A DNA stretch of 64,000 nt, from positions 1,753-65,752 of the forward strand of contig JBIKNF010000010.1 in NCBI GenBank assembly GCA_044358835.1, read 5' to 3'. The notes beneath the pieces were generated by a model. That model saw nothing but the letters and a program-made list of their open reading frames with translations, ran no database searches and had not been told where the DNA came from. How positions within the stretch are numbered: the stretch's first letter is position 1; the number at the start of each line of letters is the position of its first letter. The translations under genes and the position numbers were made by a program. Source of the stretch: Vampirovibrionales bacterium. GTDB lineage: Bacteria; Cyanobacteriota; Vampirovibrionia; Vampirovibrionales; JAJTHC01. Of the stretch, positions 2,815 through 60,858 are shown one piece after another.

Positions 2815-3118
2815 TTTCTCTATTGTCCCTTATGTATTTATGCCAAAAAATTGTATGAAGTCTTTAAAGGTGAGGGGTAAATTCGATTTTTTACCGTTCT
2901 TACCGTTCTGTATTGGGTTAGATTGCTTTGAAGTGGTGCAATCTCTTTACTGTCTCGCTTTAATAAACAATGCCCAATCCTTAAAATTGCCTAAATTTTT
3001 TTGTTTTGTTACAAGTTGTTACAGTGTAAAAAATGCCTGCACCGCTTTAGTCAGGGCAAGGCAATACCAATCAAACGACTAAATAGCATATTTAAACGTC
3101 TTTAAACCAAAAGCCTGT

Positions 3119-4322: not shown

Positions 4323-5309
4323 ATGAAAAAACGCCTTTGTTTATTTGCAGGGTTTGATAAAACAGCCCAAATCCAAGAATACGTTCGTTTTTACGTGCAA
4401 AGTTTGTCTGAATTTTGCGATGTGTATTATTATGCAGATTGTCCTATAGCGGAAGAAGAACTAGGCAAGTTGTCACCCTATGTGAAACAGGCCTTTGCTT
4501 CACGACATGCCAAGTACGATTTTGGTTCATGGCAAGCTTTAATCCAACACCTCGGGTGGGATGTGATTCAACAATACGATGAGCTTATTTTAGCCAATGA
4601 CAGTTGCTACGGCCCCTTGTATGAGTGGGCGCCTGTTTTTGAAAAAATGGATGAAACTCCTTGCGATTTTTGGGGGTTGACCTCTGGCAAAGAGATCAAC
4701 TGGCATTTACAAAGTTATTTTTTAGTGTTTAAGCAGCAAGTATTGCAAAACAACGCCTTTCAACATTTTTGGCAGTCCATACAAAAGCAACCCAACGTTT
4801 CTAAGGTTATTAAGGCCTATGAATTAACTTTGGCGCCCTTATTGCTGAAAGAAAATTTTAAAGCGGGGGCTTATATTGCCCATGAACAAAAAACGACTAA
4901 AATTAAAAACATGACAAGGCTACCTTTTTCTTTGATAAAAGAATTTCAAATGCCTCTTCTGAAAGTAAAAACCTTTACGGAACCTGAACATCATTTAGCC
5001 GAAATGTGCGACGATTGGCAGGCTTTTTTAGCGCGATATACGGACTACCCTGCTCAATTAATTCATCAACATCTCCAAAATTTGAACATAGATTGTGAAA
5101 AAATCAATCAAGAAGCCTTGCTGAGTTGTTGTAAAAAACATCTTTTTGTTCAGTGGGGCTGGTTGTTACTCGTCAAAATAACTAAGCAGGAAAAACTATT
5201 GGTAAAAGTGTGTAAAATTCCGGTTTTAAGTGTACGCCTTTCTAAAGCCTTTATTCTTAAATGTTGTTCTTTGTTGGGCATCACTCAAGAACGTTTAAAT
5301 GTCGTATAA
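4323..5309 (+). CDS. Hypothetical protein, possibly a rhamnan-synthesis-F (RgpF)-like glycosyltransferase-associated protein
   Basis: Uninterrupted 328-aa ORF. The WGLTSGKEINWHLQSYFLVFK region is reminiscent of the RgpF family. The functional call is weak. Confidence 0.4.
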   Translation: MKKRLCLFAGFDKTAQIQEYVRFYVQSLSEFCDVYYYADCPIAEEELGKLSPYVKQAFASRHAKYDFGSWQALIQHLGWDVIQQYDELILANDSCYGPLYEWAPVFEKMDETPCDFWGLTSGKEINWHLQSYFLVFKQQVLQNNAFQHFWQSIQKQPNVSKVIKAYELTLAPLLLKENFKAGAYIAHEQKTTKIKNMTRLPFSLIKEFQMPLLKVKTFTEPEHHLAEMCDDWQAFLARYTDYPAQLIHQHLQNLNIDCEKINQEALLSCCKKHLFVQWGWLLLVKITKQEKLLVKVCKIPVLSVRLSKAFILKCCSLLGITQERLNVV

Positions 5310-12172: not shown

Positions 12173-12384
12173 CTTCTATAGAAGGCTCTGCAAAAGTCCC
12201 ATTCGGCGAATCTTCTGTGCACGAAGCGTGAGTGATTGCAAGCAATCAACAAAACAAGCCGTTGTTCGCTTTGCGAGTGATTGCAAGCAATCAGCGTTAT
12301 GTAGTAGGTCTACACGCATCAAAAGCCGTTTATTTTTCCTTGAATATTCATCCGGCTTGAACTTTTGCAGAGCCTTCTATATAG
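12173..12384. repeat. Inverted-repeat (hairpin or MITE-like) element between convergent genes
   Basis: Perfect 21-bp inverted repeats at 12177-12197 and 12361-12381 (cttctatagaaggctctgcaaaagt / acttttgcagagccttctata), 163 bp apart. Inside, the near-palindromic gagtgattgcaagcaatca occurs twice as a direct repeat. Confidence 0.8.
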
Positions 12385-12431
12385 TATTCGATAGATGAAA
12401 CGGTACAGCCTGTACTTGGTTAAGTCTTGGC

Positions 12432-14485: not shown

Positions 14486-16771
14486 ATGACGTTTTCTTTC
14501 CCTTCCTTTCCCAATCCTCGTTCTATTCAAAAGCATCTATCTTTCAAAGGGTTTCACTATGGTTGGGTGCCTTTCGTTGCAATGGCACTCACTCTAGGCC
14601 TCTTTAATCCTTTTATGAACTTGCTATTGCCTCAGGCTTCAGCAACCAATTACCCTGTTTCTATTTTACCGACTGAAAATATAGCACGCCCAGCGGTGAG
14701 TATCTTTAAGGGTATTAAGGTGGCTCCAGATTATGCTCGCGTGGATTTAAACTTGAGAAATACTAGTATTGTTGATATTTTACAATTACTGGCGGAACAA
14801 GGACATTTTAATATCATTGTGGACGAATCAGTCACAGGAGTCATGACAGTCGATATTAAAAATATCAGTGTCAATAAAGCCTTGGAATACATTTTTATTA
14901 CAGGTGGATTGAGCTATACCCAAGAAGGGAATACCCTTGTTGTGGCGAATACGGCGACGACCAATGCCCGTTCTTTAAATGCAAAAATCTTTAAAGTGAT
15001 TCCGATTAAATATAGAGATGCGGGGCAGGTTTCCACCCAACTGAATCAAACCATTTTTGCGGCGAATAAACCGGGTACGAATAATATGGCGGTAGCCACC
15101 TTTGACCCGAATACCAATAGCTTATTAGTGGTGGCGACGGATCGTGAAGTGGCGTTGATTGAAGAGCTTTTGCCACAACTAGATTTGCCTCGTAACCGTA
15201 AAGTTTTTAAAATTATGCATGGTAATGAAACAGCAATTGCTCTTTCTGTTTTTACGACCCTTACCGCTGGCTGGGCAAGTAATTCAGCTGGTGGTGCAGC
15301 AGGCGGTGCAGCTGGTGGTGCAGCTGGTGGTGCAGCTGGTGGTGCAGCTGGTGGTGCAGCAGGCGGTGCAGCTGGTGGTGCAGCAGGCGGTGCAGCTGGT
15401 GGCGCAGCAGGCGGTGCAGCTGGTGGTGCAGCAGGCGGAGCAGCAGGCGGTGCAGCTGGTGGTGCAGCAGGCGGAGCAGCTGGTGGTGCAGCAGGCGGAG
15501 CGGCTGGTGGCGCAGCAGGAGGAGCGGCTGGCGGAGCAGCAGGAGGAGCGGCTGGCGGAGCAGCAGGAGGAGCGGCTGGCGGTGGGCAGTCTTTTCAAAG
15601 AGGTGGTTTTTCAATGGTGCCAAACCATGCCACAGGTACGGTAACGGTGTATGGCACCCCTGAACAATTACAATTGGTGGAAGAATTGATTCATGAACTA
15701 GATGTGGCTCGTCCCCAAGTAATGATTGAACTTTCTTTGATCGAACTGAGCAAATCCAACACAAAAGTCATCCAACCCATTACGAGTGGTCCGATTGGGT
15801 TTGGCGAGTTTCAAATCGCCACATTTACAGGTTCACCTTTTACATATGGAGGTAGAGCCTTAGGTATTTTAGGGGGTGGATCTAATAACGGATCGGTCGG
15901 TAAGTTTCGACTACCAGGGATAGGGTTTAACTTTAACAATAACGACACCAAAGCAAAAATTTTAGCGAATCCCACCCTTATTGCGGTGGATGGCACCACT
16001 TCTTCGGTTAGCATTACTGATACGATTGTATACTTTACGTCAACAACGACCGTGCCTGCCGCTGGAGTACCTACGGTAACGTGGCAAGCCAATAACCAAG
16101 AAGTCGGAATTAAACTTGAATTAACCCCAGTGATTACCAATGATGGTAATGTGACCATGGCACTCAAACCTTCAGTAACTCAACTGATCTCGCTGAAAGA
16201 AGGGGGAGGTGGTGCGGTAAGTGCTCCTGAAATTGCCACACGTGAGTTTACGATTGCGTCTGCTCGAGTAAAAGATGGGCAAACTCTTGCCATTGGGGGC
16301 TTGTTAAGAGATACGCGCAATGAATCATGGGACAAAATACCAGGACTCGCTAACTTACCCATTGTAGGAGCCATGTTCCGTTCCACGACTTCTGCGGGTA
16401 ACACGACCCAACGAACGGAACTCGTCGTTTTGGTCACGCCTCACATTCTAAAAGAAGAAGTGAACTCGCCTTACTTTGACGGTGACCCCAAACCCGCTTC
16501 CGATTCTGATGCGTTAACGGTGCCTCAACATGGAAGAACTGGTACACCCCTCGCTCCTTCAGAAGTAAAAGTGATGGGCGAAAAAGGTGGGGAACTTAAG
16601 ATAGAAACCGGTCGTTTGGTCATGCCCGAACCCCAAGCCCCTAAAAGTAGTGAAAAACTGGAAAGATCTGTCAAACGTAAGCAGGCAAAAATGGAAGACC
16701 CTTATAGTGTGACGCCTTATAATGACTACATAGGTGGCCTCAATCGTAACTTTGGTAGTAATTTCAAGTAA
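14486..16771 (+). CDS. gspD: Type II secretion system secretin GspD containing a 105-aa (AGGA)n low-complexity insert
   Basis: N-terminal secretin N domains, then the conserved C-terminal secretin domain (ANPTLIAVDG...VTPHI). The insert is encoded by the tandem DNA repeat at about 15284-15598. Confidence 0.8.
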   Translation: MTFSFPSFPNPRSIQKHLSFKGFHYGWVPFVAMALTLGLFNPFMNLLLPQASATNYPVSILPTENIARPAVSIFKGIKVAPDYARVDLNLRNTSIVDILQLLAEQGHFNIIVDESVTGVMTVDIKNISVNKALEYIFITGGLSYTQEGNTLVVANTATTNARSLNAKIFKVIPIKYRDAGQVSTQLNQTIFAANKPGTNNMAVATFDPNTNSLLVVATDREVALIEELLPQLDLPRNRKVFKIMHGNETAIALSVFTTLTAGWASNSAGGAAGGAAGGAAGGAAGGAAGGAAGGAAGGAAGGAAGGAAGGAAGGAAGGAAGGAAGGAAGGAAGGAAGGAAGGAAGGAAGGAAGGAAGGAAGGAAGGGQSFQRGGFSMVPNHATGTVTVYGTPEQLQLVEELIHELDVARPQVMIELSLIELSKSNTKVIQPITSGPIGFGEFQIATFTGSPFTYGGRALGILGGGSNNGSVGKFRLPGIGFNFNNNDTKAKILANPTLIAVDGTTSSVSITDTIVYFTSTTTVPAAGVPTVTWQANNQEVGIKLELTPVITNDGNVTMALKPSVTQLISLKEGGGGAVSAPEIATREFTIASARVKDGQTLAIGGLLRDTRNESWDKIPGLANLPIVGAMFRSTTSAGNTTQRTELVVLVTPHILKEEVNSPYFDGDPKPASDSDALTVPQHGRTGTPLAPSEVKVMGEKGGELKIETGRLVMPEPQAPKSSEKLERSVKRKQAKMEDPYSVTPYNDYIGGLNRNFGSNFK
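15284..15598 (+). repeat. Tandem 12/24-nt repeat array (gctggtggtgca gcaggcggtgca)n, about 26 x 12 nt, in frame inside gspD
   Basis: Read directly. The repeat encodes AGGAAGGA... and produces the three overlapping artefactual ORFs on both strands in the track. Confidence 0.9.
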
Positions 16772-18666: not shown

Positions 18667-19899
18667 ATGGCAAACTACGCTTATAAAGCCGTGAATTTGG
18701 TTAGTCGTAAAAAGCAAGAAGGGGTCATCCCCGCTTCCAATGAAATGGAAGCACGTTCTAAATTAAGGGAAATGCAACTTTCAACGCTTTCTTTAGAAGA
18801 AGTCACGGGGTATCAAGACGGGTCAGGCACTCTCGTTAAAAAGGGATTTAAATTTGGCTTTAAAAGTAAAGTCAGTAGCAAAGAAGTCATGGCTTTTTCT
18901 CGAAACTTGGCGATTATGATTCGTGGGGGGATCCCTATTACAGAATCTTTACTTTATTTTGAAAACTTTTCAGAAAAGATTACCTATAAAGCCATGGTAC
19001 AATCCGTACGTCGAGACATTCTTGGCGGTATGCCCTTTTCAGAAGCCTTAGGTAAGTTTCCTGAAGTGTTTAGTACTATTTTTATTAACATTACCCGAGC
19101 AGGAGAAAGTTCAGGGGAGCTGGATGTTACGATGGAACGTATGGCAGACCTCATGGAACGCACCGAAAAAATTAAAGCCAAAGTGATTTCAACAGCCATT
19201 TACCCTGCCATTGTGTTGGGCTTAGTGGGCATCGTTTTACTGGTTATTTTTTACTTTGTGTTGCCGTCTTTTGAAAAAATCTATACCCAAATGGGGGTGG
19301 ACTTACCGTTAATCACCAAAGTTATGATTTTTATTTCCAACTGCTTGCGAAGTGGTTGGTTTATTACGCTTCCTGCGGTGGCTTGTGCAGTGTGGGGGTT
19401 CATGAAATTTATTTCTACTAATTTAGGTAAACGCTTGATTGACCAATATGTGATTTATATTCCAGTTCTCAAACAAGTCATTCGATTTACAAACGTGTCA
19501 AGCTTTATTTCTACCTTGAGTGTTTGTTTTGGAGCGGGTATTCCGATTACAGAAGGGTTGGATTATGCGGTTTCAACGGTAGGGAATGCCACCTATCGAA
19601 CCACACTGATGAATGTCAATACGCAAGTGCAGACAGGACGACGTTTGGGGGTAGCCTTAGCTGAAACAGGTATTATTCCTGAACTGGTTTTGCTGATTGT
19701 GGCAACGGGCGAAGAGTCGGGGAGCTTGGATCAATCTTTGGGCACTGCCCAAGAATATTTGGAAAAAGAAATTGATCAACGGATTGGGGTGTTGATGTCT
19801 TTTATGGAACCTATACTTTTGATGTTTTTGGGGATTATTGTTGGAATTGTAGCCTTATCCATCTACATGCCGCTCTTTAGTATGTATGAAAATATGTAG
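18667..19899 (+). CDS. gspF: Type II secretion inner-membrane platform protein GspF
   Basis: 410 aa with two GspF/PilC-type cytoplasmic domains and three TM segments. It directly follows gspE. Confidence 0.8.
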   Translation: MANYAYKAVNLVSRKKQEGVIPASNEMEARSKLREMQLSTLSLEEVTGYQDGSGTLVKKGFKFGFKSKVSSKEVMAFSRNLAIMIRGGIPITESLLYFENFSEKITYKAMVQSVRRDILGGMPFSEALGKFPEVFSTIFINITRAGESSGELDVTMERMADLMERTEKIKAKVISTAIYPAIVLGLVGIVLLVIFYFVLPSFEKIYTQMGVDLPLITKVMIFISNCLRSGWFITLPAVACAVWGFMKFISTNLGKRLIDQYVIYIPVLKQVIRFTNVSSFISTLSVCFGAGIPITEGLDYAVSTVGNATYRTTLMNVNTQVQTGRRLGVALAETGIIPELVLLIVATGEESGSLDQSLGTAQEYLEKEIDQRIGVLMSFMEPILLMFLGIIVGIVALSIYMPLFSMYENM

Positions 19900-19924
19900 T
19901 AATACCAATTTAACGATTAAATAG

Positions 19925-20040
19925 CGTCTGGCGTCTTCGTTGTCGCTCAGGTTCTCGATGTACTTATGTACGTTTATGTACACTTCACCCATCTGCGAGT
20001 CTAGGCACCTAGAATCCACCTATACGCTATTCAGTCGTTT
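19925..20040 (-). repeat. Degenerate copy (D) of the ~150-nt 5'-region repeat family, upstream of dnaK
   Basis: Shares ggcgtcttcgttgtcgct, ttatgtacgtttatgtaca, ctaggcacctagaat and atacgctattca blocks with copies at 22600-22730, 54069-54218 and 60709-60858. Confidence 0.6.
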
Positions 20041-20382
20041 AAATGGTATAAGCACTTTTTCGCAAAGTTCGTTTTTACCATATTCCCGTCCTTTTCAGGG
20101 GCGGGAATATGGTATTTTCTGATCTTTTTTCTATGAACCCCCCATAAAACTTAAGAAATGATGATAAAAAAACTAAAAAAACCTTATGACTAAAGGGGTT
20201 ATAACTTTTTTTGACTACAATGAAATAGATGTAAATAATCGCAAGGGTGTAAAAAACTAAATAAAATCTAAAGAATGCAAGCCTTACTATACATACCTGT
20301 ATCTTTCATTTAGAATAGTCGTATCTTAATTTTATTTTTGATGAAAAAGTTATTACATTTAAACAATAAGGAACACATCCCC

Positions 20383-22224
20383 ATGGCAAAAGTCGTCGGT
20401 ATCGATTTAGGTACAACCAACTCCGTTGTTTCCGTAATGGAAGGCGGTCAACCCGTTGTAATTGCAAATGCAGAAGGCAACCGTACTACGCCTTCTGTTG
20501 TGGCATTTAGCAAAAATGGTGATCGCTTGGTTGGGCAACATGCCAAACGTCAAGCGGTTGTCAACCCTGATCGTACCATTGCTTCAAACAAGCGTTACAT
20601 GGGTAGTGACAAAACATGGTCCATTGACGCTAAAGAATGGACGCCCCAAGAAATTTCGGCTCAAATTTTACGTAAACTTGCGGATGACGCGTCTACTTAC
20701 TTAGGTGAAAAAGTCACGCAAGCCGTCATTACCGTGCCTGCTTACTTCAACGATGCTCAGCGTCAAGCCACCAAAGATGCTGGACGCATTGCGGGTTTAG
20801 AAGTGTTACGTATCGTCAATGAACCGACTGCGGCCGCTTTTGCCTACGGCTTAGACAAAAAAGATCACGAAGAAACCATTTTGGTTTTTGACTTAGGGGG
20901 CGGTACTTTTGACGTAACCATTCTTGAAATGGGCGAAGGCGTTTACGAAGTTAAAGCCACTAGTGGAGACACTCACTTGGGTGGAGATGACTTTGATGAA
21001 GCGGTGATGGAATGGATTATGGCCGAATTCAAAAAAGTCGAAGGTATGGATCTTAAAAATGACAAGCAAGCCTTGCAACGGGTCCGTGAAGCCGCAGAAA
21101 AAGCAAAGTGCGAGTTATCTTCCTTAGAATCCACCAACATTAACTTGCCCTTTATTACGGCTACAGCAGAAGGCCCCAAGCACTTGGATGTCTCCTTGTC
21201 TCGTGCCACGTTCAACCAAATCACCAAAGAACTGGTTGAACGTTGCCGTATTCCCGTTGAAGCCGCCATTAAAGACGCGGGCTTAAGCAAAGAAAACATT
21301 GATGAAATCGTTTTAGTCGGCGGTTCCACGCGTATTCCTGCGGTTCAAAAATTGGTGGAATCCATTACAGGCAAAGCGGCTAATCAAGGCGTCAACCCTG
21401 ACGAAGTGGTCGCCGTGGGTGCTGCCCTTCAAGGGGGCGTCCTTGCGGGGGATGTCAAGGACATCGTGTTGTTGGATGTTACGCCACTGTCCTTAGGCGT
21501 TGAAACCATGGGTTCTGTAATGACGAAACTTATTGAACGTAACACCACCATTCCCACCAAGCGTAGCGAAGTCTTCTCCACCGCTGCGGACAATCAAACC
21601 AGTGTGGATGTTCATGTGCTTCAAGGTGAACGTCAATTCGCCAAAGACAATAAGTCCTTGGGTGTGTTCCGCCTAGAAGGTATTGGGCCTGCCCCTCGTG
21701 GTATTCCTAAGGTGGAAGTCACCTTTGATATTGATGCCAACGGTATTTTGAGCGTTTCGGCGAAAGATCAAGCCACAGGCAAGCAACAATCCATTACGAT
21801 TAACGACAGTTCCAATTTGAGCGATGCTGAAGTGGATCGCATGGTTGAAGAGGCAGAGAAGTTCAAAGCTGAAGATGAAGCCAAGAAAAAGCAAGTAGAA
21901 GCCAAAAATCAAGCGGAACAGCTTTGCTATTCTGTAGAACACCAGATCAAAGATTTGGGTGACAAGGTGGAAGCGTCTGAAAAAGAAAAAGCCGAAGGAC
22001 TGATCACACAACTGCGTGACGCCATTTCGGCAGACCAGCATGACGATATTCAACGCTTGCATGACGAACTTCAAGAAGTGGCTTACGCCATTAGCACCAA
22101 AGCGTATGAAGCCGCAGGGTCTGCTCCCACGGCGGCGGATGCTGGCTCAGTTCAAGCAAACGCAGAAGACGATGATGTGATTGATGCGGATTACACGCCA
22201 AGTGATGACGCTGCGAAAGTCTAA
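20383..22224 (+). CDS. dnaK: Molecular chaperone DnaK (Hsp70)
   Basis: [14 protein letters not shown]...DLGGGTFD...; full-length Hsp70. The ORF in the track extends 15 codons upstream from a TTG, but ATG at 20383 has the aagga ribosome-binding site. Confidence 0.95.
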
Positions 22225-22321: not shown

Positions 22322-22576
22322 ATGCTTTCATTATTTGCTCATTTTTTGGCCACTTTAGTGAATCTTTATAAAATTATGATCTTTATTCGCATTCTCCTAA
22401 CGTGGATCCCTTCGTTGGATTGGCGTTATCCTCTTTTTCGTTTTTTAGAAGAGGCCACAGAACCTGTGCTTCGTTATGCTCGAAATCTCATTCCGCCTGT
22501 AGGAATGTTTGATCTTTCCCCGATTGTCGTTTTTTTAGGGCTAAATGTGTTGGAATACCTGCTGAAAAGCTTGTAA
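22322..22576 (+). CDS. YggT-family small membrane protein
   Basis: 84 aa with two TM helices. LTWIPSLDWRYP...L.PVGMFDLSPIV resembles YggT/Ycf19. Confidence 0.6.
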   Translation: MLSLFAHFLATLVNLYKIMIFIRILLTWIPSLDWRYPLFRFLEEATEPVLRYARNLIPPVGMFDLSPIVVFLGLNVLEYLLKSL

Positions 22577-22599
22577 GACCCATTAAACGATTAAATGTC

Positions 22600-22730
22600 G
22601 TGTGGTCTCTTGGTTAAGGCTACGATTTTTTTGTTTGGTTATGTATGTTTATGTTCCCGCCCGCACAAAAAATATAGGCGCCTACAATAGCCTAATACGC
22701 TATTCATCCGTCTTCTGGCTTCACTTGTGA
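22600..22730 (-). repeat. Copy (C) of the ~150-nt 5'-region repeat family, upstream of the small-protein gene at 22964
   Basis: ggctacgatttttttgtttggttatgtatgtttatgtt cccgcccgcacaaaaaa taggcgcctacaatagcct is the reverse complement of the core of copies A and B. Confidence 0.7.
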
Positions 22731-35805: not shown

Positions 35806-37095
35806 CTAGTCAAGTAGATCAAAGATTCCTCCGAGGTTTCTTTGGGTGTAACGCAACTTGCGCAAGGCCAGGTTTTCAGTTAGACTAATTTTGTCTTTAC
35901 CACAGTTCATTTCTTTCGCTATTTGTTCAAGCGTCTTTGGATCCTCTCCATCTAGTCCAAAACGCTTTTTTAAAACAACCTGCTCTTTTTCTGATAAAGA
36001 CTCCAGGGCTTTTGCTAGCTTTTCCTTCAATTCAAGCATTGACAAGGGTTCAACCTCATCTGGCATTGTTGCACGAATTAATTCCAAAAGGGGCGTTTCG
36101 CTACCAGCCATTGGTGCATCTAACGAGACGGTTTTAAGACTAAAAGCTTCTCCCACCTCTTCTAGCCCCTTTGCGTTCCATCTACCCTTTGGGTCTGTCT
36201 GCTGTAAATGTTCAAGCAGTTCGCTAGGAGTAGGAGCTTGACCAAGTTCCTTCCGTAATGTAGTTGTTGCTTTGCAGATTTTAGACCATTTTGCGGGCAT
36301 ATGAACAGGAAGCCGAATCGTACGGGCTTGATTCGCAATGCCACGCGTAATGCCTTGTCGGATCCACCAATAGGCATAGGTTGAAAACTTATAGCCCATT
36401 GTGGCGTTAAACTTTTCCGCGGCACGGCTTAGGCCTAAATTACCTTCTTGAATCAGGTCTAGGTAGTCTAGCCCCTTACCCCGATATTCTTTTGCGACAG
36501 ACACCACCAAGCGTAAATTGGCCTTTATCATGCGAACATGCGCCCGCTTGGCGGCTCGAACTATTCTAGCCTGTTTTTGGCTTAACGTTGGACGACTAGA
36601 TACATTATTGTTCGCACGGTATGCTTTAAGTATATCGTCTAATTCTGGATTTTTGATTACTTTACCTTTAGAGTCCAGAATTTCGCCTAATTCCGTTTTA
36701 AGTTCGTCAAGGTATGCTTTAAGTAAAGCAGTAAATCCTGGATTTTCGATTTCTCCTTTCTCGGAGCTTAGATTTGGGCTTATTTGCGTTCTAAGATCTA
36801 GGAGGATTTTCTCCCCCGCCTGGATTTGGTGAGCCAACTCAATTTCTTCGGCAGGCGTAAGCAACGGCACACGCCCTATTTCTCTGAGAAAGTCTCCAAC
36901 ATTCTCACCCCAAGTTCTTTTATTCCCAGTTCTTTGGGTGGGGGTAAAACAATCCGTCGCAGGATTTTTAAAGCCCCCTTGAGATCTACTGGTCAGTTGG
37001 GTTGGGTTGGGTTGGGTTGGGTTGGGTTGGGTTGGGTTGACTGGACTGGACTGGACTGGGGAAACACCCCACCTATAAAGTAGTTGTAGCATCAT
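35806..37095 (-). CDS. Sigma-70 family RNA polymerase sigma factor, a divergent paralogue with an N-terminal repeat region and an insertion between regions 1.2 and 2
   Basis: Region 1.2 (FLREIGRVPLLTPAEEIELA), region 2 ([51 protein letters not shown]) and region 4 (LSEKEQVVLKKRFGL...LRKL). Strong similarity to the adjacent sigma gene. The N-terminus, VNPTQPNPTQPNPTQ, is encoded by pentanucleotide repeats. Confidence 0.75.
   Translation of the reverse strand: MMLQLLYRWGVSPVQSSPVNPTQPNPTQPNPTQLTSRSQGGFKNPATDCFTPTQRTGNKRTWGENVGDFLREIGRVPLLTPAEEIELAHQIQAGEKILLDLRTQISPNLSSEKGEIENPGFTALLKAYLDELKTELGEILDSKGKVIKNPELDDILKAYRANNNVSSRPTLSQKQARIVRAAKRAHVRMIKANLRLVVSVAKEYRGKGLDYLDLIQEGNLGLSRAAEKFNATMGYKFSTYAYWWIRQGITRGIANQARTIRLPVHMPAKWSKICKATTTLRKELGQAPTPSELLEHLQQTDPKGRWNAKGLEEVGEAFSLKTVSLDAPMAGSETPLLELIRATMPDEVEPLSMLELKEKLAKALESLSEKEQVVLKKRFGLDGEDPKTLEQIAKEMNCGKDKISLTENLALRKLRYTQRNLGGIFDLLD
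36997..37059 (-). repeat. Two adjacent pentanucleotide microsatellites, (TTGGG)8.6 followed by (ACTGG)4 on the plus strand, i.e. (CCCAA)n(CCAGT)n in the coding sense, inside codons 12-33 of the sigma-factor ORF
   Basis: Counted directly: eight full TTGGG units at 36997-37036 plus a partial ttg; four ACTGG units at 37040-37059. Confidence 0.95.
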
Positions 37096-37220: not shown

Positions 37221-38270
37221 TTATTCAATATATTCCCGAAGGCGACGACTTCGGTTGGGGTGACGCAACTTACGCAAGGCCTTGGCTTCAATCTGACGAA
37301 TGCGTTCACGCGTGACGCCAAACAATTGCCCCACTTCTTCAAGCGTGCGTTGACGGCCGTCATCCAGTCCAAAACGCAAACGCAACACATCTCGCTCCCG
37401 CAAGGAAAGTCCTGCCAAGACTTCGGTTAAATCTTCACGCAACAATTCATGAGCCACGCTTTGAGCGGGGGCTTCAGCTTCACGATCTTCAATAAAATCA
37501 CCCAAACGCGAATCTTCTTCTTTACCAATCGGTGTTTCAAGCGACAATGGTTCTTGAGCGACTTTGATAATTTCACGCAACTTGTTAATCGAAATCGTCA
37601 TGCTGGCAGCGAGCTCTTCTTCACTCGGCTTACGACCGAGTTCTTGCGCCAGTTGACGGGTTTTTTTGCGGAGCTTGTTAATCGTTTCCACCATGTGAAC
37701 AGGAATGCGAATCGTACGGGCTTGATCCGCAATGGCGCGGGTAATGGCTTGACGAATCCACCACGTGGCATAGGTTGAAAACTTATAGCCCCGTTCGTGG
37801 TCAAACTTTTCAGCCGCACGAATCAACCCCAAGTTCCCTTCTTGAATTAAATCCAGGAACAACATGCCTCTTCCCACGTATTTTTTCGCAATGGAAACCA
37901 CCAAGCGTAAGTTGGCTTGTACCAATTTCTTTTTGGCTCGTAAGCCACCTTCGCCACCTTCAGCGATTTTACGCGCAAACTCAATTTCTTCGTCCGCCGT
38001 AAGCAGGTTGATTCGCCCAATTTCACGCAGATACATGCGAACAGGGTCGTCTACCACCACGCCTTTGGTGTCTACAGAAAAGTCCACAGTGTCATCATCG
38101 GTATTGGCGAGCATGCTGTTAATCACCACAGGGTTGCCGTGATTAAACAACGAAGCACTTTCATCCTTCATAAAATCATCTAAGCCAACATCATCATGCG
38201 TACTTCGCTCAGAACGATCGATGAGATCAATGAGGGCATCATCACTTTTGGTAGATCGTCGTTTCATCAT
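37221..38270 (-). CDS. Sigma-70 family sigma factor (RpoD/RpoS-like, regions 1.2-4; no region 1.1)
   Basis: [80 protein letters not shown], and a C-terminal [15 protein letters not shown]. 349 aa. Confidence 0.85.
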
Positions 38271-42046: not shown

Positions 42047-42415
42047 CTAGGCCTTTACCGCACGCAGTTGTTCGATTTTTTGGGAAAAATCTTCAGAACT
42101 AAAGGGTTTGACTAAATAGTTGTTCGCACCTGCTTGAATGGCAATGACGACATTATTGCGTTCGCCTTCTGTGGTTACCATCATAATCGGGGTGGTGATT
42201 TGAGCTTCTCGCAATTTACGGACGACATCAATGCCCAATAAACCTGGCATATTCCAATCCATTAGAATCAAATCAAATTTTTCTTTTGAAGCTGCTTCTA
42301 ACCCTTCAAGGCCGTCGGTGGCTTCGGTTACGTCTTCAATTCCACATTGTTTTAATTCACGAATAATTACTTTACGCATGACAGCGGAATCATCTACAAC
42401 TAAAACGTTTATCAT
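42047..42415 (-). CDS. cheY: Chemotaxis response regulator CheY (single REC domain)
   Basis: VLVVDDS...DLILMDWNMPG...KP: the acidic pocket, phospho-acceptor Asp and conserved Lys of receiver domains. 122 aa. Confidence 0.8.
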   Translation of the reverse strand: MINVLVVDDSAVMRKVIIRELKQCGIEDVTEATDGLEGLEAASKEKFDLILMDWNMPGLLGIDVVRKLREAQITTPIMMVTTEGERNNVVIAIQAGANNYLVKPFSSEDFSQKIEQLRAVKA

Positions 42416-43095: not shown

Positions 43096-43485
43096 CTAAC
43101 TAAAGTCCAGCATTTCTTGCGGGAGGCATTCCATCATTTTGGTAAGTAGTTCATCTTCTGTAAAGGGTTTAGTCAAGTATTGAGCCGCCCCTGCTTTGAT
43201 GGCTCCGATCATTTTTTCACGTTCGCCTTCTGTGGTTACAATCATGACGGGGATATTAGATAAAGCGGGATCTGCTTTGATGGACTTTAGCGTTTCTATG
43301 CCGTCCAAATTCGGCATATTACAATCGAGCAAAACGAGTTCTACATCCGTACAATGGGCCTTGAGTTGTTCCAAGCCTTGAAGACCATCTTCAGCTTCAA
43401 GCATTTCATAGCCGAGTGCTTGGATAGGACCTCTCATAATTTTACGAATGAGACGAGAATCATCAACAGATAAGATGTAAGGCAT
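43096..43485 (-). CDS. cheY: Chemotaxis response regulator CheY (second copy)
   Basis: ILSVDDS...ELVLLDCNMP...TKP receiver domain. 129 aa. Confidence 0.8.
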   Translation of the reverse strand: MPYILSVDDSRLIRKIMRGPIQALGYEMLEAEDGLQGLEQLKAHCTDVELVLLDCNMPNLDGIETLKSIKADPALSNIPVMIVTTEGEREKMIGAIKAGAAQYLTKPFTEDELLTKMMECLPQEMLDFS

Positions 43486-54068: not shown

Positions 54069-54218
54069 TATAGTGTTTGAAAGATGAAACAGGCGATGAG
54101 GCTATTCTAGGAGCCTCGGTTTTTTTGTGCGGGCGTGTAGGCAGAACTACATAACCAAACAAAAAAATCGTAGCGACAACGAAGAGATCAAAGACCCTTT
54201 TATCTATCGCTTACTATA
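54069..54218 (+). repeat. Copy (A) of the ~150-nt 5'-region repeat family
   Basis: tatagtgtttgaaagatgaaacaggcgatgaggctattctaggagcc...tttttttgtgcgggcgtg...cataaccaaacaaaaaaatcgtagcgacaacgaagaga...actata. About 90 % identical to copy B at 60709-60858. Confidence 0.85.
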
Positions 54219-60708: not shown

Positions 60709-60858
60709 TATAGTGTTCGAAAGATGAAACAGGCGATGAGGCTATTCTAGGAGCCTAGATTTTTTTGTGCGGGCGTGTACATAAACGTACATAACCAAGC
60801 AAAAAAATCGTAGCGACAACGAAGAGACCATAGACCGTTTTATCTAGCGGATACTATA
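60709..60858 (+). repeat. Copy (B) of the ~150-nt 5'-region repeat family, 38 bp upstream of the J-domain gene start
   Basis: tatagtgttcgaaagatgaaacaggcgatgaggctattctaggagcc...aaaaaaatcgtagcgacaacgaagagacc...actatag. Confidence 0.85.

Follow-up and report, generated by a model that had tools for sequence, protein, structure and literature searches.

A repeat of about 150 nucleotides occurs several times in a 64,000-nucleotide stretch of a Vampirovibrionales genome (contig JBIKNF010000010.1; hereafter the window, meaning the whole stretch), and two of its copies lie beside genes of the Hsp70 system, dnaK and a J-domain gene. This raises the question of whether the repeat is a regulatory signal shared by its neighbors, a structured RNA, or a mobile element, the three possibilities that a preliminary description of the locus had listed. 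We find that the four repeats are very probably copies of a family of non-autonomous DNA transposons, or MITEs (miniature inverted-repeat transposable elements), abundant in one freshwater clade of the Vampirovibrionales (Melainabacteria), and that the presence of copies beside dnaK and the J-domain gene is coincidental. The element is of an ordinary kind, and the family seems to be undescribed: our literature search retrieved no full-text paper pairing MITEs with Vampirovibrio or Vampirovibrionales, and searches on Melainabacteria yielded nothing about such repeats.

Results

A high-copy repeat of one bacterial clade

The repeat, first reported as present in at least four copies, is real, and the window holds exactly four full ones. 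An nhmmer profile built from all four gives them E-values between 1e-51 and 1e-59 and shows no further full copy in the 64 kb. They are named here A to D, and differ in the type of their ends (T1 or T3) and of their centre, or core (alpha or gamma):

54069-54218, + strand: copy A, T3-end subfamily with a gamma-type centre; TA (54069-70), 146-bp element, TA (54217-18)
60709-60858, + strand: copy B, T3-end subfamily; TA, 146 bp, TA
about 22574-22723, - strand: copy C, decayed; T1-type ends, gamma-type centre
19900-20051, - strand: copy D, T1-end subfamily with an alpha-type centre; near the family consensus

Copies A and B are direct repeats of 150 nt with 89% identity, in line with the initial estimate of about 90%, and C and D are indeed diverged copies on the opposite strand; the limits first given for A and B hold, and those of C and D have been corrected to the ones above. 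Copy C, with a degenerate outer left terminal repeat, shares 81% identity with a copy in L024 that combines a T1 end with a gamma core (L-numbers denote compared loci from related metagenome-assembled genomes (MAGs), genomes, or metagenomic and viral contigs).

Searching one genome per species with a degenerate pattern drawn from the four copies returned at least 103 matching stretches, nearly all of them in seven Vampirovibrionales MAGs, and in about 0.72 Mb from these 7 MAGs nhmmer found 198 copies or fragments. Matches so numerous, and so nearly confined to one clade, indicate a high-copy dispersed repeat of that clade. One of the seven MAGs, JBEISK01 (L015, L043 and L083), is labelled 'Gammaproteobacteria bacterium'; since its pilB and pilC products share 90-92% amino-acid identity with those of the window and it carries the MITE family, this is very likely a genome of the Vampirovibrionales that was mislabelled or mis-binned.

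Inverted ends, target-site duplications, filled and empty sites

In an alignment of 81 full-length copies with their flanks, conservation is confined to a unit of about 152 nt and stops sharply at its borders; the ends of this unit are inverted copies of each other (CTTATACCAWTTAAACGATTRAATAGCGT) and form terminal inverted repeats of about 29-30 bp. The element proper measures 146 bp in every end type, and 150-152 bp with the duplicated target; the spacing of the terminal repeats is likewise 150 bp in almost all of 57 T1 pairs. No conserved open reading frame (ORF) is present in the element, a 27-codon ORF of the alpha core being absent, by eye, from the gamma and beta cores. Three types of ends define the subfamilies:

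T1 end: TACCATTTAAACGATTGAATAGCG, also given as TACCATTTAAACG; window copies D and C (decayed)
T2 end: TAGCCAAGTTTAGAG... or TAGTGTTTTAAAGAG...; no copy in the window
T3 end: TAGTGTTCGAWAGATGAAAC, also given as TAGTGTTCGA; window copies A and B

The flanks carry the trace of insertion. Identical TNA trinucleotides border both sides of 40 of 58 T1 copies, and none of the 58 in a shifted control; the N of this duplication varies (TTA 18, TAA 10, TCA 6, TGA 6). The other two subfamilies have TA on both flanks, in 19/26 T3 copies and 13/17 T2 copies, and the TATAGT/ACTATA termini proposed at first, although present, consist of this TA target duplication plus the TAG...CTA ends of the element. Nested insertions in L093 and L056 give the same picture, as only one TA stands in the consensus of the host element that was interrupted. 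In the window, copy D shows a TAA duplication (19900-02 and 20049-51) around a 146-bp element at 19903-20048. This duplication begins 1 nt past the stop codon of pilC (window 19897-19902), and the TAA flanking copy C (22574-22576) is itself the stop codon of yggT; with a preference for TNA targets, TAA and TGA stop codons would be natural sites for T1-type copies.

Orthologous regions differ in whether, and where, they contain the element. The site of copy B is filled in L029 and empty in L072, where the J-domain protein is 65% identical and a separate T3 copy lies about 70 bp farther from the J-domain gene than the B site. Also, the intergenic region of copy A contains in L086 a T1 copy instead of a T3 one, inserted at a different nucleotide and with a TCA duplication. 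What other species carry at the A and B sites are therefore separate insertions into the same intergenic regions, and not conserved regulatory sequence.

Bacterial MITEs are generally shorter than 200 bp, lack a transposase ORF, carry terminal inverted repeats, duplicate their target site and occur as dispersed copies (PMC3184786). The 146-bp element has the corresponding features, namely size, repeats, TA or TNA duplications, absence of a transposase, a stable hairpin, and filled and empty sites. Of the options first listed, the MITE is hence the one borne out, by its terminal inverted repeats, duplications, nesting, filled and empty sites and more than 100 copies in related genomes; the count of copies and the inspection of their flanks, proposed then as the way to check it, gave the 198 matches and the TNA/TA duplications reported here.

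A predicted rod-like hairpin kept by compensatory changes

Folding predictions turn the whole unit into one rod-like hairpin with an energy between -55 and -66 kcal/mol and z-scores from -7.6 to -10. Among 18 representatives with matching ends, 92.8% of cells are paired and 130 cells carry double changes, versus 48 in shuffles, while slid controls are only 30-49% paired. The outer helices are 88-91% paired across subfamilies, with double changes in 18 of their 21 pairs. The central stem reads CTCG...CGAG in the alpha core, TTTTTTTG...CAAAAAAA in the gamma core and TTATTTTG...CAAAATAA in the beta core. The sequence TGTACATAAACGTACATAA, taken in the preliminary description for a direct repeat, is actually an apical hairpin, TGTAS-N6-STACA, that covaries between C-G and G-C, so that TGTAC...GTACA alternates with TGTAG...CTACA. 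Terminal repeats and central stem vary in a compensatory manner from one subfamily to another, and pairing is kept.

Such a structure invites the reading that the copies encode a structured RNA, present many times over as a 5' leader or as a separate family of small RNA genes, of which a long stem and conserved internal loops would be characteristic features. The great stability of the fold, the survival of pairing through many double changes and the conserved unpaired boxes between variable helices (see below) agree with this, as does the fact that one strand folds better than the other by about 8-11 kcal/mol in 103 of 107 copies. However, pairing is not by itself evidence of RNA, because terminal repeats and palindromic MITEs yield such complementarity anyway: whenever a transposon has terminal inverted repeats, its ends will be complementary. 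Most of the strand asymmetry arises in the core that the copies have in common, and they are for this reason not independent evidence of it. Moreover, TA/TNA duplications, nesting and empty sites are marks of spread at the DNA level; the orientation of copies relative to flanking transcription is near random; the flanks have no conserved promoter or terminator, and the T-run that follows hairpin 1 is missing from the alpha core. Rfam (Rfam 15) gave no match at gathering thresholds in the whole window, and none at E<=1 for copies B and D. We consider a structured RNA very unlikely.

Two further signatures were tried and discarded. A strand-specific excess of G-U pairs, which would have pointed to RNA, is not seen: under symmetric pairing rules, G-T pairs (602) are overall no more numerous than A-C pairs (763). 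A hairpin followed by T7 on the + strand of copies A and B scores as a transcription terminator, yet it is not a feature of the family: we rejected this reading because the T-run belongs to the central stem, of which it forms one arm, and does not occur in the commonest (alpha) core.

No association with genes

The neighborhood of the four window copies is what first suggested regulation. Their settings and distances to the nearest downstream start codon are:

copy A: divergent region between a 455-aa gene (start 53988, - strand) and a 225-aa gene (start 54430, + strand); 80 bp
copy B: between two - strand genes, a DsbD-like gene (stop 60931) and the J-domain gene (start 60670); 38 bp
copy C: between yggT and a 158-aa ORF; about 100 bp from the TTG start of the ORF
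copy D: between pilC and dnaK; about 330 bp from the likely dnaK ATG at 20383

The initial claim that every copy lies 35-250 bp upstream of a start codon thus fits A, B and C, and fails for D. There, the dnaK start is likely the ATG at 20383 rather than the TTG at 20338, a terminator-like hairpin (18-bp stem with a T-run, 20076-20114) lies downstream of pilC and of copy D, and a promoter-like TTGACT-17-AATAAT stands ahead of dnaK at 20211-20239. Because these two signals intervene, we assign copy D to the 3' region of pilC and not to the 5' region of dnaK. It is also true that the same end points toward the nearest downstream start in all four copies, but the constant 5' position and orientation described from them do not extend to the family.

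Indeed, when 159 copies were scored against a simple ORF-based gene map, none lay inside an ORF (0/159), and the neighboring gene pairs, in the orientation of the model, were distributed as follows:

co-directional (-,-): 32
co-directional (+,+): 19
convergent: 31
divergent: 27

These intergenic classes are near the proportions of about 50% co-directional, 25% convergent and 25% divergent, a baseline that is a rule of thumb and does not come from these genomes, and they lend no support to the suggestion that the element preferentially lands in promoters. The orientation bias among co-directional pairs (32 vs 19, p=0.09) is not significant, in either core type, and for this reason we regard the pattern of the four window copies as a small-sample coincidence. 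Copies random in position and orientation across related genomes are precisely what the preliminary description had named beforehand as speaking for a simple mobile MITE.

This bears directly on the proposal of a shared cis-regulatory module, an operator or promoter that might, for instance, provide heat-shock control of dnaK and the J-domain gene in place of the CIRCE (controlling inverted repeat of chaperone expression) operator and its repressor HrcA. Several observations favor it: the common orientation in the window; the two Hsp70-system genes among four neighbors; the lack of CIRCE, rightly noted before, whose inverted repeat TTAGCACTC-N9-GAGTGCTAA does not occur in the window even when 3 mismatches are tolerated; a conserved -10-like TAGAAT/TACAAT directed toward the downstream genes in all four copies; and the orientation of the insertions that arose independently in other species at the A and B sites, the same as in the window (2/2). 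Yet the dnaK orthologues in L070 and L106, with 95-96% amino-acid identity, have no copy upstream, and in L015 an orthologous, decayed copy follows pilC with a gene other than dnaK next to it. In the window itself, dnaK is separated from copy D by the terminator-like hairpin and has its own promoter-like site. Furthermore, 31 copies lie between convergent genes, the bias in orientation is that given above, TAGAAT is missing from the beta-core subfamily, no -35 is seen by eye at a usable spacing, and the internal boxes have decayed in the D/L015 orthologous pair. With the A- and B-site copies elsewhere being independent insertions, we find a shared regulatory or heat-shock module highly improbable. 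Motifs for sigma-32, sigma-54, DnaA boxes, IHF and hammerhead ribozymes were also considered by eye, and none fits all copies.

A local effect on the expression of a neighbor is a different matter, and is possible: the predicted 150-nt hairpin of copy B, for example, lies 38 bp upstream of the J-domain start codon. Compatible with a MITE family is the idea that some copies have been co-opted and alter their neighbors, as an outward promoter, an RNase III-sensitive hairpin or a site for a nucleoid protein, in analogy to what is reported of Correia elements in Neisseria, the J-domain gene being one candidate. Copy B separates the start codon of this gene from sequence that is contiguous with the gene in L072, so that the transcript would either start inside the element or read through it; the -10-like TAGAAT faces outward, and effects of this kind are documented for Correia elements and other MITEs (PMC10969869). 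On the other hand, the family as a whole is not enriched at the 5' ends of genes, and the boxes have not been kept in the D/L015 pair. Co-option of some copies is in our view conceivable, although rather unlikely.

Internal boxes more conserved than the ends

Two nearly invariant internal segments are common to all subfamilies: a left box, GATTCTAGGAGCCTAGA, at positions 36-53, and a right box, AATCGTAGCGACAACGAAGA (also written AGCGACAACGAAGA), at positions 98-117. For copies picked solely by their terminal repeats, the mismatch to the consensus is:

T1 copies (n=51): left box 0.7%, right box 4.6%, terminal repeats 5.6-6.4%, centre 10%
T3 copies (n=18): left box 0.6%, right box 2.8%, terminal repeats 5-9%, centre 7%

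Almost all of the variation in the T1 right box falls at positions 101-103. In the sole orthologous pair, copy D and its counterpart in L015 (n=1), the boxes decay like the rest of the element: identity is 83% in the left box, 70% in the right box, 71-73% in the terminal repeats and 76% over the whole element. From this one pair we infer that the boxes are constrained in lineages that still propagate, as cis-acting signals for transposition, and not by the host at each locus.

Candidates for the transposase and related MITEs

The related genome Vampirovibrio sp. CP050876.1 (L112) contains two elements of the IS5 family of insertion sequences (IS):

L112 6995-7840: IS-A, ends GGTAGTGTCGACAT, flanks TA; -1 frameshift at A7G
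L112 about 4349-5181: IS-B, ends TACGGTAAGTTT...ACCGTA, then TAA; in-frame stop in the transposase ORF

The IS-A transposase has 253 aa and the domains DUF4096 and DDE_Tnp_1, and a stretch from L112 9998 onwards is grouped with this element. A third MITE, of 144 bp and with TA flanks (L052 1660-1803 and L076 5202-5345), has exactly the terminal repeats of IS-A and shares the apical hairpin module with the 146-bp family. The T3 end itself resembles the IS-A repeat only in part (TAGTGT.CGA). A further lead comes from viral contigs, 'viral' being a database label, in which the right-box pattern matched two IMG/VR contigs and the left-box pattern none. These two, L109 (10436-10769) and L110 (1-334), share an identical stretch with a T3 copy that lacks its last ~11 nt and abuts the 3' end of an IS5-family (DDE_Tnp_1) transposase gene, inside which both contigs break. 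Relatives of this transposase occur as fragments in Vampirovibrio sp. CP050876.1.

Since TA/TNA duplications fit, and since the 144-bp MITE carries the repeats of IS-A, our best guess, as yet unproven, is that an IS5-family (PIF/Harbinger-like) transposase acting in trans is the source of mobility.

The window also contains a member of a second MITE family, at 12177-12381: it is 205 bp long, is flanked by TA and ends in TATAGAAGGCTCTGCAAAAGT... terminal repeats whose 30-nt arms are 87% complementary. Its terminal repeat has 41 matches in 28 of the compared sequences, around interiors that vary from 86 to 207 bp, some of them with the apical hairpin module of the 146-bp family. The orthologous intergenic region of L074 contains a copy of the 146-bp family instead. 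Two solitary remnants resembling terminal repeats complete the inventory of the window:

3061-3103, - strand: T1-type remnant (GCAATACCAATCAAACGACTAAATAGC...), 70% identical to the ends of D and C; a weak nhmmer match
12380-12402, + strand: T3-type remnant (TATAGTATTCGATAGATGAAAC), abutting the MITE of the second family

Discussion

Our data describe a MITE family that may have spread as follows. A DDE transposase supplied in trans, most plausibly of the IS5 family (PIF/Harbinger-like), would move the element by a cut-or-copy and paste mechanism into TA or TNA sites, and insertion would duplicate the target. Copies would survive only between genes, as selection would remove insertions into genes, which is our proposed explanation for their exclusively intergenic location. 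The nearly invariant boxes would be cis-acting sites for propagation, recognized for instance by the transposase or by a host DNA-bending protein, rather than sites that serve the neighboring genes.

A number of observations weigh against this picture. Some copies are chimeric and pair a T1 end with an end of type T2 or T3, and a derivative of about 78 bp, in which a T1 or T3 left end and the left box are joined straight to a T2 right end, exists in several copies (L073, L023, L071, L014, L011, L052 and L066). Such chimeras and the short derivative show modular recombination within the family, and copies with mismatched ends are hard to fit into a simple scheme in which each terminal repeat has its own transposase. 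Then, an autonomous element with T1, T2 or T3 repeats was found neither in the window nor in about 0.7 Mb of MAG loci. Pairs of terminal repeats 0.4-4 kb apart yielded two candidates, both of them neighboring MITEs; no multicopy ORF was found among the 586 proteins of the loci, and neither the window nor the MAG loci gave a tblastx match to IS-A or IS-B. IS elements usually assemble poorly in MAGs. In 80 metagenomic loci with relatives of the IS-A transposase all ends are of the GGTAGTGTCGACAT type, with no T1, T2 or T3 repeat and no MITE, and the TACGGTAAGTTT ends of IS-B do not match T1 (TACCATTTAAACG). The conservation of interior boxes above that of the terminal repeats is unusual for a MITE. 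Together with the strand asymmetry of the fold and the same-orientation insertions at the A and B sites, it could hint at a function beyond selfish spread.

Taken further, the boxes and the strand asymmetry could mean that the element brings along a functional cargo on which the host draws, either a site bound by a nucleoid or regulatory protein or a structured, strand-specific RNA. We think this improbable. If it were so, a common response would embrace dozens to hundreds of intergenic regions, that of the J-domain gene and the pilC-dnaK junction among them.

Among known elements, the Correia elements of Neisseria (CREE/NEMIS) are the closest in architecture, the resemblance being a functional and architectural one. 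Correia elements duplicate TA and have TATAG-type ends that make -10-like boxes; to our knowledge, no cognate transposase has been identified for them. Both families are intergenic MITEs of about 100-157 bp, with more than 100 copies per genome, often just upstream of genes; both have a conserved internal feature that can be likened to a protein-binding site, the IHF site in Correia and, putatively, the boxes here; and both form RNA hairpins, predicted ones in the case of the 146-bp family, RNase III cleavage being a property of Correia (PMC10969869, PMC3184786). Within Correia elements lie a site for a host factor, promoters and substrates of RNase III (PMC10969869). Unlike them, the 146-bp family lives in another phylum, has several terminal-repeat subfamilies on one core, duplicates TNA in one of these subfamilies and keeps strictly to 146 bp.

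In terms of hosts, closer relatives are Nezha, MaeMITE and the Anabaena MITEs of the sister lineage Cyanobacteria. They are similar in size (130-170 bp) and share with the 146-bp family terminal inverted repeats, direct repeats, stable hairpins, and orthologous sites of which some are filled and others empty (PMC3184786). The terminal repeats of Nezha also occur in a known IS, ISNpu3, whereas no matching IS was found for the 146-bp family. RUP of Streptococcus pneumoniae and ERIC of enterobacteria, likewise intergenic MITEs of small size (107-127 bp), have terminal inverted repeats and fold stably as RNA (PMC3184786), but they belong to unrelated hosts and lack the architecture of several subfamilies on a shared core. 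As for the 'Tourist-like' MITEs of the IS5-family/PIF-Harbinger group, the likeness lies in the 3-bp TNA (T1) and TA (other subfamilies) duplications, and in the IS5 elements (DUF4096 and DDE_Tnp_1) of the related genome with their TA or TAA flanks. TNA/TA duplications are typical of IS5 subgroups. The difference lies in the T1, T2 and T3 repeats, which match neither the two IS elements examined nor the 80 relatives of IS-A.

Finally, the intergenic location, palindromic structure and high copy number, and a GTAG tetranucleotide in the right box, recall the repetitive extragenic palindromes (REPs) and the bacterial interspersed mosaic elements (BIMEs), which would place the spread of the family in the hands of a RAYT-type (REP-associated tyrosine transposase; IS200/IS605-like) enzyme or of recombination instead of a DDE transposase. 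REPs, however, measure 20-40 bp and have no target duplications (PMC3733652, PMC3184786), in contrast to a 146-bp unit with 30-bp terminal repeats and clear TNA/TA duplications, and we give this origin practically no credence.

Identification of the repeat as a very probable MITE has practical consequences. For annotation, an attractive but mistaken idea, that of a new heat-shock regulon signal, can be dropped, and a warning takes its place: 150-bp palindromic repeats, which can mimic promoters, terminators or small RNAs, crowd the intergenic DNA of Vampirovibrionales. As a case of modular MITE evolution, the family combines several end types with one core, duplications of 2 or 3 bp depending on the subfamily, a fixed length, and boxes that are more conserved than the ends, which makes it a candidate for finding the cis requirements of an IS5-like transposition system. 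Copies could also be of use as strain-level markers in freshwater time-series metagenomes, and as a flag for mis-binned or mislabelled MAGs.

Other repeats in the window

A tandem array with a 12-nt period occupies 15213-15632, inside a 761-aa ORF (14486-16771). Its 24 overlapping 144-nt registers lie in register with 60-94% identity, and the 12-nt period amounts to a 4-residue repeat in the protein. Direct repeats were also found at 36298-36530 and 37692-37924, in the adjacent genes 35806-37095 and 37221-38270, and at 42100-42191 and 43161-43252, in the adjacent genes 42047-42415 and 43096-43485. Both pairs, with 71-76% identity, reflect tandem paralogues and are unrelated to the MITE.

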